Assembly: GCA_038062895.1 (NCBI GenBank) | Contig: JBBTWJ010000003.1 | Span: 114,448-178,447 of the forward strand | DNA length: 64,000 nucleotides | From: Patescibacteria group bacterium | Lineage (GTDB): Bacteria > Patescibacteriota > Microgenomatia > UBA10105 > UBA927 | Direction of reading: 5' to 3' | In this document: positions 5,176 through 56,633 of the stretch, in pieces | How the letters are laid out: each line of letters opens with the position of its first letter | Numbering within the stretch: the stretch's first letter is position 1 | The notes under the pieces: model-generated | Seen by the model: only the letters and a program-made list of their open reading frames with translations | Database searches by the model: none | Told to the model about the DNA's origin: nothing | Translations under genes and position numbers: made by a program

Positions 5176-5640
5176 TTATTCGATGTGGACTATCTTGTAA
5201 AGGATTTTACCCGCCGGTGCCTCTACTTCCACGCTATCTCCGGGCTTTTTCCCCATGAGGGCTTTACCCAGAGGAGACTCGTGGGAAATTTTCTTTTCCT
5301 TGGGATCTGCTTCCCACTCTCCTACTACGGTAAACATATCTTTCTTCCCGTTAACGTGAAGGGTGACTTTGCAGCCCACATCCACCTGTGTTTTACCGTG
5401 GCTCGTAACGACTTTGGCGCTATGAAGAATATCCTCAAGCTCGGCAATCCTACCATCTATGAACGCTAAATCCTGCTTGGCTGCTGCGTATTCACTGTTT
5501 TCCGAAAGATCCCCGAGGCTTCGGGCGTCAGAAAGCCGCGCCACAGCTACAGGACGCTTCGTTTTTACCAGCTCATCATACTCGGCTTTGAGTTCGTCGA
5601 GTCCTTCTTTGGTAAGCATCATTTTGTGATGTGGGTCCAT
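5176..5640 (-). CDS. greA: transcription elongation factor GreA
   Basis: LTKEGLDELKAEYDEL coiled-coil N-terminus and a C-terminal FKBP-like domain; the true start may be the internal MM at about 5619. Confidence 0.85.
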   Translation of the reverse strand: MDPHHKMMLTKEGLDELKAEYDELVKTKRPVAVARLSDARSLGDLSENSEYAAAKQDLAFIDGRIAELEDILHSAKVVTSHGKTQVDVGCKVTLHVNGKKDMFTVVGEWEADPKEKKISHESPLGKALMGKKPGDSVEVEAPAGKILYKIVHIE

Positions 5641-5702
5641 ATATCAAATTTGACAGCGCCGATTAGTGCGCTGTCGTACAGAGGAAGTTTACGGAAATTA
5701 CC

Positions 5703-5731
5703 TTGCCTTGTCAAGCATGAATTGATAGAAT
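5703..5731 (+). promoter_or_regulatory. sigma70-like promoter for tRNA-Glu
   Basis: TTGCCT-17 nt-TAGAAT ending about 12 nt before the tRNA 5' end. Confidence 0.35.
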
Positions 5732-5743
5732 CATCAAGTGCAC

Positions 5744-5817
5744 GCCGCCATCGTCTAGTGGCCTAGGACGGTTGATTCTCAATCAACAAACCGAGGGTTC
5801 GAATCCCTCTGGCGGCA
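5744..5817 (+). tRNA. tRNA-Glu (anticodon CTC)
   Basis: Cloverleaf with acceptor GCCGCCA/TGGCGGC, D-loop GTCTAGTGGCCTAGGAC, anticodon loop TTCTCAA and T-arm GGGTTCGAATCCC; no encoded CCA. Confidence 0.8.
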
Positions 5818-5908
5818 CTGAAGGGGTCCCCTGCACCAGTGATAAGCAGGGTGCAGAGCCACGTACTGAATTTTATTCTAGTACTGTGGCGACTCCCCTA
5901 CGCGCTAC

Positions 5909-7459
5909 TTAATTCAGGAGACCTAATTTGGCAAGACGCGATCTGATAGCGCCATTTTTTCTCTCGAATGTTTTAGACAAATCGCCCGTCGACCAACCTT
6001 TTGTATATAGATTCTTCAATTTCTCATCTTGTTCTTTGTCCCAAGGTCGGTAAGCGTTCGGATGTACTTCTCTAATTTTATCAAAACCCGTTCCACCATC
6101 GCTTTTCCCACCGCATCGGGCAATGAACTGCTTATGCATTGCCGCTATTTCCTCCCTTCCCATTTTAGTAAATGTATCGACTGTAGCCACCGACTGTGCT
6201 CTGAACGCCCCATCTTTGGCGACGATATCCGGATGCACCTGAAATGCGCGTTCGTTCCATCCGAGAATGTAGAGATCGGAAAGCCGCCGGATGCGCGAGA
6301 GCGCAACATATCCCTGACCAAATTCAAAAACGCCCGAGAGATCCACGACCGCCTTTTCCAATGTCATTCCTTGACTCTTATGTACTGTGATAGCCCAGGC
6401 CAGACGAAGCGGTAGCTGGGTAATCTGCGCCCGAATGGTACCGTTTTCTTCGACCGACCAATCCATGGGTTCAACGGTAATCTGTCGCCCGTTGCGTACC
6501 GTGACGATAGGATAGCCTTCCTCTTCATCAAATTCTCTAATCACCCCAAGCGTGCCGTTGACAAATCCTTCTTTGGGACTATTTTTCGTGAACATGACTG
6601 TGGCGCCAACTTTCAGAAGAAGCGTTTCAGGCGAAAGACACCCTTTTTTCAGGGCAGCTACCAACGCATCAGGACCTTGCGCGGACATGGGGAAACCACG
6701 CGGCTCGTCCGGAAGCTTCGCGAGCACCTCATCGTTGATGCGATCTACGTCTACGTTATGCGTGAATAGTTTCGGCGCGTTTTTCGGTACGGCTTGCGAA
6801 TGGGTTTTTCTCGCTTCAATCTGATGCAAGTGATCGATAGTGAACGCATTGCGCCGGATTGCTGAAAGTACGCCCAAAAAATCACGGTCGTCCTGTCGGT
6901 ATTGTTCGGTAAGGTAGCATACGGTTGGATTTGCCCCAATCCACGCAGAAGAATCATACGCGAATCGCGCTAATGATTTTTCAATGAGCGTGGCTTGTAC
7001 ACTTTGTTCTGTTTCTTTTTTTACCACTGGCGGCAGTTGAAAAAAATCACCGGAAAAAACTACCTGCATACCGCCAAACGGTTCCGGATGCTGTGTAATC
7101 TTACGAACTACCGCGTCAACCATGGAGAGCGTCTCGGGATTGAGCATGGATACTTCTTCGATGATAAGAACATTAGCCCGACGGACGCGCTTGGTAATAT
7201 ATTGACTGGATGCTATTTTTTGAAGATCGTGTTGAGAGAGCGTCGTTTTTATCCCTATCCCGCTCCATGAATGGATCGTCATCCCGCCGATATGGGTGGC
7301 CGCGATACCAGTTGAGGCCGTTATTGCCGGTTCAATACCCCGACCACGCAAATACGCTACATACTCGTTGATCGCATAGGTCTTGCCGCTTCCCGGCTCC
7401 CCGGTCAAAAAAACATTAGCGCCGGTTTTGAGTATGGCAAGTGCTTGAGATTGCGTCAT
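5909..7459 (-). CDS. PIF1/RecD-family ATP-dependent DNA helicase with a C-terminal HTH-like tail
   Basis: Walker A GEPGSGKT, AAA_30/UvrD_C_2-type layout, SF1B motifs. Confidence 0.75.
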   Translation of the reverse strand: MTQSQALAILKTGANVFLTGEPGSGKTYAINEYVAYLRGRGIEPAITASTGIAATHIGGMTIHSWSGIGIKTTLSQHDLQKIASSQYITKRVRRANVLIIEEVSMLNPETLSMVDAVVRKITQHPEPFGGMQVVFSGDFFQLPPVVKKETEQSVQATLIEKSLARFAYDSSAWIGANPTVCYLTEQYRQDDRDFLGVLSAIRRNAFTIDHLHQIEARKTHSQAVPKNAPKLFTHNVDVDRINDEVLAKLPDEPRGFPMSAQGPDALVAALKKGCLSPETLLLKVGATVMFTKNSPKEGFVNGTLGVIREFDEEEGYPIVTVRNGRQITVEPMDWSVEENGTIRAQITQLPLRLAWAITVHKSQGMTLEKAVVDLSGVFEFGQGYVALSRIRRLSDLYILGWNERAFQVHPDIVAKDGAFRAQSVATVDTFTKMGREEIAAMHKQFIARCGGKSDGGTGFDKIREVHPNAYRPWDKEQDEKLKNLYTKGWSTGDLSKTFERKNGAIRSRLAKLGLLN

Positions 7460-42651: not shown

Positions 42652-44049
42652 TTATTCCTTTTTTGGTCGCACGGAAATTCCCAGCTCAATGAGCTGCTCG
42701 GAAGTGGCGGCACTCGGTGCGTCCATAACGGAAATCTGACCGGAGGCACTGGCTGGATACGCCATAACCTCCCGTACGCTTGGCTCGCCAAGGATAGCCA
42801 TAAGGAATCGGTCAATGCCCGGCGCAATACCGCCGTGAGGCGGAACGCCATAGGTGAAAGCGGTAAGCATATGGGCAAACTGGGATTTTTGCTTATCGGT
42901 AAATCCGATGAGATCAAACACTTTTTCCTGTATCTCTTTTTGGTGAATCCTGATGCTCCCCCCACCTACCTCGTAGCCGTTGAGAACCAAATCATGTTGT
43001 AGACCCCTTACTTTGAGAGGATCGATCTCCAGAAGCCCTATGTCATCCGGGTGGGGCGACGTAAACATATGATGGGACGGGGCAAACTTGGCTTTCCCGG
43101 ACCCGTGATAAAAATCCTCTTGAGACTGCTCGGTAAAGAGCGGAAAATCTATGGTCCAGGAAAACGCGAGTTCGTTGGGATCTTTTTTGTCTTTGCGCAG
43201 ATCCGGCTTATCCGTGCCATACTTAGCTTTGGCTTCGGCATGGGGAATGCGCGGCCAGGGTGATTGGGAAATATGTTTCTCCGGAAAAAGCTCGATGACG
43301 AGCTTGGTAAATAAATCTTCGGCGATGGTCATGATGTCATTTTGCGTAATGAAGGACATTTCCATATCAAGCTGCGTAAACTCACCGTACGCGCGGTCAT
43401 GCCTCGGGTCTTCATCCCGGAAACAGCGCGCGATTTGGAAGTACCGCTCGAATCCCGCGACCATAAGAAGCTGTTTGTATTGCTGCGGGCTCTGGGGAAG
43501 CGCGTAAAACTTGCCCTTCTGGAGACGCGACGGCACGATGAAGTCCCGTGCCCCTTCCGGCGTGGTCTTGGTTAATATAGGTGTTTCTATCTCGACAAAA
43601 TCATGTCCGCTCAAATAATTGCGGATAAACATCGTCATTTTTGAGCGCATCCGAAGATTCCGGTTCATCCGCGGCCGGCGCATATCCAGATACCGATATT
43701 TGAGCCGGATTTCTTCATTAATTTCGAGCCCATCCGTATCGATGGGAAACGGAAGCTCACGGGCTTTGGATACAATTTTTAACTCTTTCACTTCCACCTC
43801 AACCGTGCCGGATTCTAATTTGGGATTAATCATGGATGCCGGACGCTCCTTCACTAGTCCCACGACTTCGATAACGTCTTCAGGACGGGCATCCCCTTTA
43901 TCCTTGGTCGATACCAATTGCACGATGCCAGAACGGTCCCGGAGATCCAAAAACATGATCTTCCCGTGGTCGCGCCGTGCCCCGACCCAACCCTGAAGGA
44001 GCACTTCCTGACCGACTTTTTCTGTAATCTCCCGTGCAAGTGTACGCAT
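42652..44049 (-). CDS. aspS: aspartyl-tRNA synthetase, bacterial type without the GAD insertion domain
   Basis: OB-fold N-terminus, motif 2 FRDEDPRHDR and motif 3 GGIAPGIDRF; at 465 aa the length implies no GAD domain. Confidence 0.9.
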   Translation of the reverse strand: MRTLAREITEKVGQEVLLQGWVGARRDHGKIMFLDLRDRSGIVQLVSTKDKGDARPEDVIEVVGLVKERPASMINPKLESGTVEVEVKELKIVSKARELPFPIDTDGLEINEEIRLKYRYLDMRRPRMNRNLRMRSKMTMFIRNYLSGHDFVEIETPILTKTTPEGARDFIVPSRLQKGKFYALPQSPQQYKQLLMVAGFERYFQIARCFRDEDPRHDRAYGEFTQLDMEMSFITQNDIMTIAEDLFTKLVIELFPEKHISQSPWPRIPHAEAKAKYGTDKPDLRKDKKDPNELAFSWTIDFPLFTEQSQEDFYHGSGKAKFAPSHHMFTSPHPDDIGLLEIDPLKVRGLQHDLVLNGYEVGGGSIRIHQKEIQEKVFDLIGFTDKQKSQFAHMLTAFTYGVPPHGGIAPGIDRFLMAILGEPSVREVMAYPASASGQISVMDAPSAATSEQLIELGISVRPKKE

Positions 44050-44229
44050 ACCATTTATTCTATGGTCAATTTACCATCTTGACAAGAAGGAGATTCTAAT
44101 GCTATAAACGATATCTAACCTATGCAAACTAACGGTCACCAAATTATCAACGTCCTCCTTATTAAGCTCCGATTCGGGGCGAGGGGTCGTGTGGTGACTG
44201 CATAAAAATAAATTTATAAATCACACGAA

Positions 44230-44253
44230 CCCCGCCAATAAGCGGGGTTTTTT
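44230..44253 (+). terminator. intrinsic terminator (CCCCGC-CAATAA-GCGGGG plus T6) on the + strand
   Basis: Perfect 6-bp GC stem and a T-run; preceded by a second long hairpin (GGGTCGTGTG ... CACACGAACCC). Confidence 0.5.
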
Positions 44254-44419
44254 GATGTGTTGCTTTGCAAGCGAATTCCTATTCGCGAGCTTAGCAACCA
44301 TCAATCCGCCAGAGTGCGCTCTTTACGCCGTGTACGAATAGTACTGAAAAGGCGTAAAGGAAGCTCAGGCGGATAGTGACGAGGACGTAGCCCTCGGGAA
44401 CGGCAAGCGGTCTACTGGG

Positions 44420-44653
44420 ATGATGGGAGAAACTATGAACGTGGACTCAGCACAAAGAATTGCAATGAACAGATTCATTGGACAAACTGATGAAGTCTTT
44501 CTTGAGGCAGTAAGAACATTACACAAAGCGGGTGAGTCATTCCCGTTGGATGGAGCCATACTTGATCCAAAACAGGAATTTATAATCACTGACGCTAATA
44601 TATTTGCCGTCAGAACTGCACATGGATTAATTTTTGTTCGTGATGAAACGTAA
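44420..44653 (+). CDS. hypothetical small protein
   Basis: ORF only; first of two adjacent small + strand ORFs. Confidence 0.3.
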   Translation: MMGETMNVDSAQRIAMNRFIGQTDEVFLEAVRTLHKAGESFPLDGAILDPKQEFIITDANIFAVRTAHGLIFVRDET

Positions 44654-44680: not shown

Positions 44681-44920
44681 ATGCATGAAAAAGAGCTACG
44701 AGAGGAGGTGTTAAATAATATAGAAACTATCTCTACTTTAACATTTTATCCGAGGGGAACAGGCGAAATAGTATGTTATTCGCCAGAAGACGTCGCTCGA
44801 GCAGGAATAGCTGTTTTCCCTGACTCATTAAACGTAACTTTTGGACCTGATGCAGGTCAAAGATATCAAGAAGCAAGAGGACTTATATACGAACCGGAAG
44901 AAACCGCAGTAGTTAGTTAA
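44681..44920 (+). CDS. hypothetical small protein
   Basis: ORF only. Confidence 0.3.
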   Translation: MHEKELREEVLNNIETISTLTFYPRGTGEIVCYSPEDVARAGIAVFPDSLNVTFGPDAGQRYQEARGLIYEPEETAVVS

Positions 44921-53207: not shown

Positions 53208-53498
53208 ATGCCGAAAAAAACAAAGAAAGAAAAAATCATCGCCCAGTACCGCAGAAAACTCCAGGGGCTACACGAAACAGTCCCCGCGAGTACAGTATTG
53301 AAGCAGTCCACGAGACTAACACAAACTCCTTCCTCCTCTCCCTTCGTGTATCAGGCAAAGACAAACGATTCTCATGGCACCGTTACCGCTATACAACCCA
53401 TAGACCAGGCAATCCGAAAAGATTTAGTGAAAACACTTATGTTAGCGGCAATTGCAATCGGAGGAGAAATAGTGCTATCGGTGATGATGGGGAAATAG
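53208..53498 (+). CDS. hypothetical small protein with a C-terminal TM helix
   Basis: ORF; ATG abuts the inverted-repeat arm. Confidence 0.4.
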   Translation: MPKKTKKEKIIAQYRRKLQGLHETVPASTVLKQSTRLTQTPSSSPFVYQAKTNDSHGTVTAIQPIDQAIRKDLVKTLMLAAIAIGGEIVLSVMMGK

Positions 53499-53509
53499 GC
53501 TACGCAAGT

Positions 53510-53771
53510 CAAGTCCTGCCCGCCGCAACTTACCTTTCGCCGAAGTCAGATTTCTACTGCGGCTCAAGGAGCGTTTGCTTGGCGGGCCTAAGAAACACTA
53601 AACTCATTCATATTCGTTAAGTGGATTGATGAAAAAAAGAATATTGCCCGCCTACGTTTCCTTTGCGGCTTTTCAGTACTATTCGTACACGCCGCAAAGA
53701 GCACGTGAGCGGCGGGCTTAAGAAACACTAAACTCATTCACATTCGTTAAGTGTTTCTAAAGGAGGTGAAA
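53510..53771 (+). repeat. tandem duplication (two ~131-nt units) forming the leader of the small zinc-ribbon gene
   Basis: 43-nt near-identical blocks GGCGGGCYTAAGAAACACTAAACTCATTCAYATTCGTTAAGTG at 53583-53625 and 53714-53756; each unit also has a GCCCGCC ... GGCGGGC inverted pair. Confidence 0.5.
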
Positions 53772-53777
53772 TAAATT

Positions 53778-53921
53778 ATGGCAAGCATGTATTGTGTAAA
53801 ATGTCGCGCAAAGAGAGAAGATCCAGCTGCAGTAAAAGTCACCATGAAAAATGGTAAACCGGCAATGAAAGGAAAGTGTCCTGTGTGTGGAACCGGTATG
53901 TATAAAATCGGAGCAGCATAA
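53778..53921 (+). CDS. 47-aa zinc-ribbon protein (DUF5679-like)
   Basis: Not in the ORF track because it is under 60 aa; strong RBS AAAGGAGGTG; sequence MASMYCVKCRAKRED...GKCPVCGTGMYKIGAA with a CxxC ... CxxC pattern. Confidence 0.55.
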   Translation: MASMYCVKCRAKREDPAAVKVTMKNGKPAMKGKCPVCGTGMYKIGAA

Positions 53922-53940
53922 TATTTTTTGAACTATAAAG

Positions 53941-53974
53941 AAACTCCGTCCTTCCGGCGGGGTTTCTTTTTTTT
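53941..53974 (+). terminator. intrinsic terminator after the zinc-ribbon gene
   Basis: AAACTCCG-loop-CGGGGTTT followed by CTTTTTTTTT. Confidence 0.5.
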
Positions 53975-53980
53975 CAACCA

Positions 53981-55949: not shown

Positions 55950-56070
55950 AACTCTCCTTCTTAAATATATGCGGAACGCGCCTACGTCCCTATCTAAGCT
56001 GGTAGCATACCAGAAATGAACACGAACAGAAAGAGGCAGTTTTTTAGCGCCTTCATGATATAATCTCTAT

Positions 56071-56633
56071 TGCACATTGGTATCCGGACGCTCGCCCTCC
56101 ATAGCTTGCCATTCGCCTTACCTACTATTCGTAGCGCGGCTCATGGTGCGCTTATTGGCGGGAGGAAAGTCCAGACAGCAGAATGCAGGGGACTGCGCGC
56201 AAGCGCTGATCCCGCCTTAGGGCGGGACTGGTGATCCTGAGATGAAAATCAAAGGAAACGATTCCCGAACTGACGGGATGAGAGAGCCACAGAGACGATC
56301 ATCAACCTGTAGCCTGACGGCTATGGTCGATGGGTGAAACGCGTCCTCCTACGTTCCGCTTTGCGGAACTATGGCGGACAAAGGCAATCCCACCCGCTGC
56401 AACCGGCGAATACACCGCCACTACGACGCATTCCGGAACCCCCGCGACTTGCGGGGTGCGGTGTGAAGTTTACGGGCATCCCGCGTACCGGGATTAGCCA
56501 CGTTTGACGTGGCTTAAGAGAAATGAGCGACTAACCCGCCTGCGCGATAGAGCTACGGCGAGGTGAACCCGTCTTGGCGATAACGCTACGGCGAGATGAA
56601 ACAGAATCTGGCTTATGAGATGCCAGTGTGCAC
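56071..56633 (+). ncRNA. rnpB: RNase P RNA (bacterial type, expanded)
   Basis: P4 halves GGAGGAAAGTCCAGAC ... ACAGAATCTGGCTTA, GGGTGAAACG (CR-II), a 14-bp P1 (TGCACATTGGTATC / GATGCCAGTGTGCA) and an upstream TATAAT at 56059-56064; ends are approximate. Confidence 0.65.

Follow-up and report, generated by a model that had tools for sequence, protein, structure and literature searches.

The question raised by this locus is whether a duplicated, structured leader in front of a very small gene serves that gene in particular. The locus lies in a 64,000-nt stretch of contig JBBTWJ010000003.1 (positions 114,448 to 178,447, forward strand) from a Patescibacteria group bacterium (assembly GCA_038062895.1). 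This whole stretch is referred to here as the window, and coordinates are window positions unless a contig is named. Two tandem units separate an open reading frame (ORF) that stops at 53498 from the gene for a 47-residue DUF5679 zinc-ribbon protein that starts at 53778. A first-pass annotation, made from the sequence alone, had suggested that they are a duplicated riboswitch- or attenuator-like RNA or duplicated promoter-operator units controlling the small protein. Comparison with related loci and with metagenome contigs established the family, structure, distribution and boundaries of the units. Each contains a copy of a dispersed intergenic repeat of Microgenomates, which belong to the candidate phyla radiation (CPR)/Patescibacteria. 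The repeat consists of an irregular hairpin, H1, that is often joined without a linker to a second hairpin, H2.

Anatomy of the tandem leader

The leader and the gene that follows it are made up of the following features. Scores in bits are those of a covariance model, R1, that was built from six H1 seed copies.

53515-53592, + strand: H1 copy u1, an irregular hairpin of about 78 nt (75 bits, E=4e-17)
53588-53623, + strand: truncated H2 after u1 (from the sequence, the alignment and comparison with the H2 consensus)
53624-53642, + strand: A-rich linker between the units (from the sequence; no promoter-like site detected)
53643-53722, + strand: H1 copy u2 (86.7 bits, E=3.7e-20; fold z=-5.0)
53718-53761, + strand: H2 hairpin (from the inverted repeat and the fold), with a 12-layer outer stem UUAAGAAACACU/AGUGUUUCUAAA
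53762-53769, + strand: Shine-Dalgarno (SD) sequence GGAGGUGA, 8 nt before the ATG at 53778
53778-53921, + strand: DUF5679 zinc-ribbon gene, 47 aa, CxxC...CxxC, product very basic

The H1 hairpin is built from a 7-bp G+C-rich helix P1, a variable helix P2 of 4-5 bp, a 3x3 internal loop (5'-UUA or 5'-UUC facing 5'-AGC), a helix P3 that usually carries a UC/UC mismatch, and a closing 4-bp apical hairpin. In u1, P1 is formed by 53518-53524 and 53581-53587 and is followed by P2, the loop UUA/AGC, P3 and an apical hairpin of the GUAGAUUUCUAC type. In u2, P1 is formed by 53646-53652 and 53711-53717 and the apical hairpin is of the GUAC-UAUUC-GUAC type. These P1 helices are the GCCCGCC...GGCGGGC inverted pairs that had been noticed in each unit. 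The H2 hairpin at 53718-53761 abuts P1 of u2 on its 5' side without a linker and the SD on its 3' side, and its outer stem carries a conserved A.A mismatch. The H2 that follows u1 is reduced to its 5' two-thirds, in which the 5' strand and the apex are kept and little of the outer stem's 3' strand remains.

The near-identical 43-nt blocks reported by the first-pass annotation are present at 53581-53623 and 53711-53753 (41/43 identical), and a repeat finder places them in a wider direct repeat (53560-53623 against 53690-53753; 64 nt, 83% identity, 130-nt spacing). The first block consists of the P1 3' strand of u1 plus the truncated H2, and the block is shared because unit 1 keeps the 5' two-thirds of H2. 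The H1 interiors of u1 and u2, in contrast, are 60% identical to each other, and both have closer counterparts, at 84% identity, on unrelated contigs (for u1, those on L128 and L129). The two tandem units are therefore real, and they form a mosaic of two subtypes rather than a simple recent duplication. The differences between u1 and u2 in P2 and P3 are compensatory, which together with the model scores and the fold of unit 2, all far from what chance would give, bears out the structured-RNA-like character attributed to the units. The leader is no assembly artefact, as its 279 nt recur unchanged in L200, a replicate assembly of a second sample with 99.67% identity over 4.8 kb. Contig L199, at 100% identity, is probably the source contig.

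The strong ribosome-binding site that had been proposed is likewise present. Its SD word (GGAGGTGA, 53762-53769) is unpaired in the minimum free energy and centroid folds, and the word also precedes DUF5679 in nearly all of 80 loci drawn from GTDB genomes, which together with the window form the DUF5679 comparison set. A promoter scan of the + strand detected no sigma-70-like promoter in or before the units, which counts against duplicated promoter-operator units, and a terminator scan detected no terminator between the leader and the DUF5679 ATG. A search of 53510-53770 against Rfam 15, at the gathering threshold and at E<=10, returned no family and one chance hit to a microRNA model.

Several other readings of the leader were tried and rejected. 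A 31-aa ORF that runs through unit 2 (53626-53721) is not credible as a leader peptide, as other H1 copies lack such an ORF context. By inspection, the consensus sequences of the H1 loops do not fit a K-turn, a loop E or a T-loop. A promoter within H1 that uses the apical TACTAT as its -10 box has no -35 box at usable spacing, and the hexamer is missing in one subtype. Finally, the sole option for anti-SD pairing is a 6-nt UCCUUU/AAAGGA match that is buried in the H1 stem, and the folds leave the SD free.

A dispersed repeat family

The element is rare at DUF5679 genes. H1 occurs at 4/81 loci of the comparison set (the window, L004, L005 and L021), so the leader is not generally conserved upstream of DUF5679 homologues. 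Among the 80 related loci, L045 has a variant of H1 and L060 and L061 have H2 alone. At most of them the gene directly follows the small ORF, with the same SD and no leader. Contigs L201-L203 encode an identical 47-aa protein without H1 or H2. Where the window and L004 can be compared at the DUF5679 locus, the H1 subtype differs and H2 is conserved.

A search of the window with the covariance model found four H1 copies at three loci. In addition to u1 and u2, the following features are involved.

44299-44377, - strand: H1 copy c3, at an unrelated locus (86.2 bits, E=4.9e-20)
56072-56630, + strand: unannotated type-A RNase P RNA gene (RF00010), in an ORF-free gap between the genes for an RRM protein and an ABC-F protein
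56091-56168, + strand: H1 copy c4, which is helix P3 of the RNase P RNA (50.9 bits, E=6.6e-11)

Two more hairpins come after copy c3 on its strand, one H2-like (44303-44253) and one two-way and terminator-like (44249-44228), and the fold of the three hairpins has z=-7.2. Beyond the window, a degenerate pattern scan of metagenome contigs located H1 on at least 118 contigs, and the covariance model confirmed 82 copies on the first 80 of them. No copies were found in viral contigs, and a phage origin of the repeat was rejected on that ground. Copies occur in both orientations across contigs, with tandem arrays in the window and in L136, L121, L095 and L186, and several subtypes are found in one genome.

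The structure of the repeat is maintained by substitutions that preserve pairing. Among the six seed copies, 14/22 H1 pairs covary. In 79 distinct copies, 93.6% of pair cells hold standard pairs, compared with 35-42% when the 3' partners are slid; double changes are seen in 16/22 pairs, and 0/500 shuffles reach the observed covariation. Parts of P1 and P3 were constrained by the pattern that retrieved the metagenome copies, so the evidence from covariation comes from the unfixed pairs of P2, upper P3 and P4. The outer stem of H2 is paired in 99.5% of cells of a family alignment whose sequences were selected for pairing; 7/11 of its pairs covary, and these partner swaps are nonetheless real. 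Nearly all H1 copies have conserved asymmetric internal loops, UUA/AGC and UC/UC, and the consensus ends of H1 are 5' uuUG-YCCGCC and 3' GGCGGR-cuuAAG. Furthermore, copies in the window are 60-76% identical to one another in their interiors, each resembles copies from other contigs more closely (82-84%), and u2 and c3 differ by compensatory changes. Divergence of this kind within a genome points to long-term structural constraint rather than a recent burst.

The genomic contexts of the copies are diverse. More than 20 unrelated gene families lie downstream of H1 in other contigs, as do transfer-messenger RNA (tmRNA), tRNA and 16S rRNA genes. The downstream genes identified with Pfam encode S21 (4 contigs), NusA (4), S12, GroES, DnaK, HU, Hsp20, thioredoxin, LexA and YbaB, and S2 was identified by eye only. 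The genes concerned are for the most part housekeeping genes, and many are highly expressed. Since H1 precedes many unrelated genes and stable RNAs, it does not constitute a switch dedicated to DUF5679.

A sense SD and ORF lie within 110 nt of H1 for 29/88 unique copies, compared with 7 that read away. The spacing from H1 to the SD is sharply bimodal, at 9-18 nt where H1 stands directly before the SD and at 48-60 nt where H1 and H2 precede it. The 3' end of H2 abuts the first base of tmRNA or tRNA-Ser, an ATG that lacks an SD, or an SD. Specifically, H2 ends at the base before tmRNA in L100, L111 and L159 and at the base before tRNA-Ser in L155 and L092. In nusA and rpsL, the ATG comes directly after the module (CUAGU|AUG) without an SD; such SD-less, abutting ATGs were noted for nusA in L169, L189, L198 and L084, for rpsL in L123, and also in L114, which suggests either processed leaderless mRNAs or an unusual form of initiation. 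Upstream of 16S rRNA, H1 is accompanied by a simple hairpin, often as a tandem pair (L136, L121, L158, L091, L184). On separate contigs, 16S rRNA seems to be flanked by inverted copies of H1, the hairpin and GAAAGUGGYACCC, and these copies could form a processing stem.

Within 90 nt upstream of H1, promoter-like sites are over-represented by a factor of 3.4, with a peak at which the -10 box ends 10-19 nt before P1 (11 observed, 1.7 expected). Many copies would therefore stand at the very 5' end of a transcript.

Copy c4, within the RNase P RNA, has an orthologue in the close relative L004 (3246-3323) that is 98% identical to it in the interior, and GGAGGAAAGUCC lies directly 3' of c4. These two are the only cases of an H1-type P3 among the 17 RNase P RNAs that adjoin DUF5679 loci, 16 of which are the syntenic RNase P RNAs of related loci; in the other 15/17, an unrelated P3 helix rises from a similar GCCCNCC/GGCGGG base. 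The repeat thus entered, or converted, P3 in one lineage, and the idea that H1 is a general mimic of RNase P P3 was rejected. In L004, the copy in the DUF5679 leader and the copy in P3 share an identical 27-nt apex. This shared apex, together with the switch of H1 subtype and the conserved H2 between the window and L004, suggests exchange between copies. Cyanobacterial STRR repeats, which occupy helix P12 of RNase P RNA, are comparable in that a genome-wide repeat resides in a peripheral helix of RNase P RNA in one lineage only. They differ in that H1 is in P3 and not P12, and is a structured hairpin and not a heptanucleotide tandem repeat.

Possible functions of the repeat

Taken together, the tight placement, the sense bias and the conserved structure argue that the dispersed structured repeat to which the units belong has been put to use by the host as a generic module of 5' leaders or intercistronic regions, a reading to which we assign a probability of about one half. 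At the DUF5679 locus, the elements would be co-transcribed with the upstream ORF and the DUF5679 cistron; no promoter-like site precedes either unit. The leader RNA is predicted to form two very stable H1 hairpins plus H2 and to leave the SD free. The module would most probably act at the RNA level, as an element of processing, stability or insulating "punctuation", and does not appear to sense a ligand. It could set the 5' end of the RNA that follows, or shield it, either through cleavage at its own 3' boundary or as a protective 5' hairpin, with H1 adding a protective or recognition hairpin near that end. From the genomic arrangement we infer transcription through the element, its processing and any effect on the expression of DUF5679. 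The simplest inference from an H2 edge that coincides with tmRNA and tRNA 5' ends, SD-less starts and SDs is a processing site or an insulating boundary.

A more specific version, in our view doubtful, is that H1-H2 is a new kind of bacterial RNA punctuation cassette, cleaved at its 3' boundary by itself, by a dedicated nuclease or by one that processes tRNA. In CPR bacteria, the 5' ends of tRNAs, tmRNA, rRNA and many housekeeping mRNAs would be set by this cut, which would also create leaderless nusA and rpsL messages, and the tandem copies at DUF5679 would be one instance of a genome-wide system. Known RNA punctuation signals include phage T7 RNase III sites, mitochondrial tRNA punctuation and the t-elements of plant mitochondria. 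The likeness lies in repeated structures between functional RNAs with boundaries at processed ends; here, the H2 3' end coincides with the 5' end of tmRNA or tRNA or with the start of a translated unit. The differences are that cleavage of H1/H2 is only proposed and that no tRNA T-loop is recognisable.

The genomes of CPR/Patescibacteria are tiny and tightly packed, and RNA control and processing in them are almost unknown. A cassette of about 125 nt that recurs before ribosomal proteins, chaperones, NusA, tmRNA, tRNA and 16S rRNA, and within the RNase P RNA of one lineage, would, if functional, provide a general signal by which these organisms express or process the genes they use most heavily, and would explain SD-less starts of essential genes.

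A number of observations weigh against use of the repeat by the host as RNA. Its presence or absence at orthologous loci is sporadic. Roughly 12-16 copies lie antisense inside co-directional gene arrays, and conserved antisense copies follow 16S rRNA (L103, L142, L102) or lie between 23S and 5S rRNA (L138, L150, L139). Some copies are upstream of a promoter, and in L147 (~2757-2866) H1 stands between the SD (GGAGGTGA) and the ATG. The retrieval pattern also inflates the apparent sequence conservation of P1 and P3. The most serious point concerns wobble pairs. H2 has 0 G:U pairs in 209 cells, and helices P1-P3 of H1 have 11 G:U pairs against 28 A.C. In the acceptor and T stems of 47 tRNAs of the same contigs, by comparison, there are 19 G:U and 1 A.C. 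When the counts were split by sense or antisense context, no orientation-dependent wobble signature was found. The near-absence of G:U is the signature of inverted-repeat complementarity. Atypical of an RNA selected on the modelled strand, it fits a DNA element built of inverted repeats, and no argument for an element like a REPIN or a MITE (miniature inverted-repeat transposable element) is stronger.

Among the alternatives to a host-used module, the one that survives best is accordingly an interspersed DNA palindrome, selfish or neutral, of the REPIN/REP (repetitive extragenic palindromic), MITE, ERIC or Correia kind, and it is a real possibility if not a likely one. The repeat would be tolerated near the DUF5679 SD, with any effect on RNA incidental, and its hairpin would be kept by a transposase or recombination system that recognises folded single-stranded DNA or by gene conversion between arms or copies. 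This explanation is favoured by Watson-Crick-only pairing in which A.C is at least as common as G:U, by the occurrence of both orientations, tandem arrays and several subtypes in one genome, and by the sporadic distribution, including contigs with the identical protein and no element. Sites that appear tolerant have been entered, namely RNase P P3 (2/17) and the SD-ATG gap of L147, and signs of conversion are the 27-nt apex shared in L004 and, at the DUF5679 locus, an H1 of different subtype in the window and in L004 next to a conserved H2. It is less easily reconciled with the sense bias and very tight spacing to SDs and starts, the enrichment of promoters just upstream, and the recurrence of the same housekeeping genes on divergent contigs (S21 four times, NusA four, tmRNA three, 16S rRNA five). 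The copies within a genome are diverged (60-76%) rather than near-identical, no viral contig has a copy, and H1 lacks the GTAG/CGTC tag of REP elements. The flanks of about 120 copies showed no recognisable target-site duplication, and among these copies there was no close empty-site pair to fix the ends. A Y1 transposase was not found either, as tblastn with an approximate IS200 TnpA query, a weak test, returned nothing at E<0.3 in 0.93 Mb of contig DNA.

Among known elements, those nearest to H1/H2 are the REP/REPIN elements and the MITE-like repeats of transcribed leaders. REP/REPIN and BIME elements are, like H1, short extragenic imperfect palindromes with two inverted arms and a spacer, and undergo compensatory changes that keep the hairpin. 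They are multi-copy, occur in both orientations and are often clustered or in tandem; for H1, there are four copies at three loci in the 64-kb window, and both orientations and tandem pairs are seen across contigs. Reports give REP/REPIN hairpin elements a persistence of millions of years (PMC3116915, PMC3337134, bioRxiv 10.1101/2022.05.22.493013), and one end of a REP element bears the tetranucleotide GTAG or CGTC as a tag (PMC3733652). H1 differs in that its ends lack such a tag, its copies within a genome are not highly identical, it shows a sense bias and fixed spacing to SDs or mature 5' ends, and a second, unrelated hairpin (H2) is attached. Moreover, REP/REPIN elements are mobilised by RAYT transposases, none of which was seen here in what was a weak test, and H1/H2 is found in CPR bacteria.

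The Correia/NEMIS repeats of Neisseria, the ERIC/IRU repeats of enterobacteria and the BOX/RUP repeats of pneumococcus are MITE-like and are co-transcribed into mRNA leaders. Repeats of the Correia/ERIC/BOX type are about 100-150 nt long, palindromic, intergenic, transcribed and often located 5' of genes, and they form stable RNA hairpins that can alter RNase III processing or stability (PMC3184786, PMC3049150). In H1/H2, by contrast, terminal inverted repeats with a target-site duplication were not recognised, the interior of H1 has conserved asymmetric loops, and the element abuts the 5' ends of tRNA and tmRNA and SD-less starts and builds a helix of RNase P RNA. A two-hairpin cassette, an edge at functional 5' ends, and employment both beside rRNA genes and as P3 of RNase P RNA are features not described for REP- or MITE-like families, and literature searches on structured RNAs and interspersed repeats in CPR bacteria returned no description of the H1/H2 element. 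If the element is selfish, then, as far as the literature was searched, no long-lived family of interspersed repeats had been described before from a streamlined CPR genome, and it would illustrate how such a repeat is co-opted into rRNA flanks and RNase P.

Returning to a role as RNA, H1 could instead be a "P3-like" module, a platform for a trans-acting protein common to many transcripts and to the RNase P RNA. Such a protein might be the RNase P protein, RNase III or the basic DUF5679 protein itself, in which case the copies at DUF5679 would serve autoregulation or titration. The asymmetric loops conserved in nearly all copies, the role of H1 as P3 in the window and in L004, the very basic and highly conserved DUF5679 protein, and the presence of two tandem sites that could bind cooperatively are all in keeping with such a platform. 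We nevertheless consider it unlikely, as an H1-like P3 in 2/17 RNase P RNAs is no general feature of RNase P, antisense copies would show different loops, most DUF5679 genes lack H1, and no solved structure or family ties DUF5679 to RNA binding.

A duplicated riboswitch or attenuator that controls DUF5679 specifically is rejected. Conserved structured hairpins do stand directly upstream of the gene, and glycine and other riboswitches are known in tandem. In contrast to these, H1/H2 is not tied to one gene family, has no expression platform and no Rfam family (even at E<=10), and consists of rod-like hairpins with very few conserved unpaired bases and no multi-helix ligand pocket. No alternative terminator or SD-sequestering fold is formed, and the element is present at 4/81 DUF5679 loci while also preceding unrelated genes, tRNA, tmRNA and rRNA. 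Duplicated promoter-operator DNA, in which the inverted repeats bind a dimeric repressor, would suit the Watson-Crick-only symmetry, and the heat-shock genes groES, dnaK and hsp20 among the downstream genes are reminiscent of CIRCE-type operators. It is nonetheless highly improbable, given that the + strand has no promoter-like site within the units or ahead of them, that the 25-30-nt arms carry conserved asymmetric mismatches, that the stems vary freely in sequence while pairing, which does not fit a sequence-specific operator, and that copies occur in RNase P RNA and abut tRNA and tmRNA. In practical terms, a "riboswitch-like" hairpin between CPR genes should be examined across its whole family before it is assigned to the gene beside it.

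Genes and other features near the copies

The remaining features of the DUF5679 locus are the upstream ORF and the terminator.

53208-53498, + strand: upstream ORF, 96 aa, with a hydrophobic C-terminus (from the ORF list; called as a gene in L199/L200)
53937-53976, + strand: intrinsic terminator of the DUF5679 transcript, with a 14-pair stem (53937-53969) followed by a T-run

The identification of the small coding sequence as a DUF5679 zinc ribbon is secure. Its product matches Pfam DUF5679 (PF18930) with E=2.3e-16 and 60.1 bits, compared with a cut-off of 27, and 538 homologues were found in the database, with 74-95% identity among the 120 matches listed. In the homologue alignment, C6, C9, C34 and C37 are invariant. 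The homologues place the organism among the Microgenomates, near Gottesmanbacteria. The ORF is called as a gene in contigs L199-L203. No NCBIfam model matched the protein, and a structure search returned no significant solved relative, with weak zinc-ribbon resemblance to aS34 and eS27 (E>=0.02). The full-text excerpts retrieved for DUF5679 hold incidental mentions only. The 96-aa upstream ORF has no match in Pfam or NCBIfam; the same small ORF lies directly 5' of DUF5679 in most of the 80 related loci, and the two are probably co-transcribed.

A terminator after DUF5679 was found where it had been expected, and weak Rfam hits around 53937-53976 are all driven by it. Its stem (AAAGAAAC...GUUUCUUU, with CGGCGGGG) has words, AGAAAC/GUUUCU and CGGCGGG, in common with H2 of the leader (53718-53761) and with P1, a resemblance that may be due to chance.

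The RNase P RNA gene, which is flagged here as an unannotated gene, scores 25.2 bits with RF00010 (E=5.5e-6) and does not reach the gathering score of 100. RNase P RNAs of CPR bacteria have been reported to score below threshold (PMC8172020). All conserved blocks are present, namely GAGGAAAGUCC (J3/4-P4), AGCCACAGA, GGGUGAAA, AAGGCAA, ACAGAAnCnGGCUUA and P1, the last formed by 56075-56084 and 56619-56628. A TATAAT sequence at 56059-56064 lies 7-9 nt before the inferred 5' end of the RNA. In the ORF list, the ABC-F ORF begins at 56615 and so shares 56615-56630 with the 3' end of the RNA, where the P1 3' strand lies. The true start is probably further downstream, and in L199 gene callers place it about 300 nt later.

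The gene aspS, downstream of c3, has its own promoter (44085-44057). The promoter reads TTGTCA-17-TAGAAT and ends 7 nt before the ATG, with no SD (44049-44085, - strand), so the aspS mRNA is probably leaderless. On the + strand at ~44085-44115, a promoter-like TTGACA...TATAAA site was seen by eye, and a strong terminator (44227-44258) follows about 130 nt later. A small RNA on this strand at ~44120-44262, between aspS and c3, is possible; Rfam returned weak, terminator-driven hits only for this interval. Further on, two protein-like small ORFs are present on the + strand (44420-44653, 77 aa; 44681-44920, 79 aa), neither of which has a Pfam or NCBIfam match. The 77-aa ORF starts 57 nt from the 5' side of c3 and reads away from it.

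Other observations concern the metagenome contigs. In L147, the H1 hairpin would bring the SD and the ATG to normal spacing, as in a "split SD", an arrangement for which gene 38 of phage T4 is the precedent. In L138 (1450-6680), the leader and trailer of 23S rRNA form a pair (1453-1468 with 6420-6435), and the 23S gene contains three group I introns and a LAGLIDADG-type ORF (5471-5959). Finally, L005, L007-L009, L012 and many others are metagenome-assembled genome records titled "uncultured Gammaproteobacteria bacterium" (binchicken co-assemblies) that carry Patescibacteria-type loci. Judging by features such as DUF5679 and a CPR-type RNase P RNA, the titles of these records look like mislabels.

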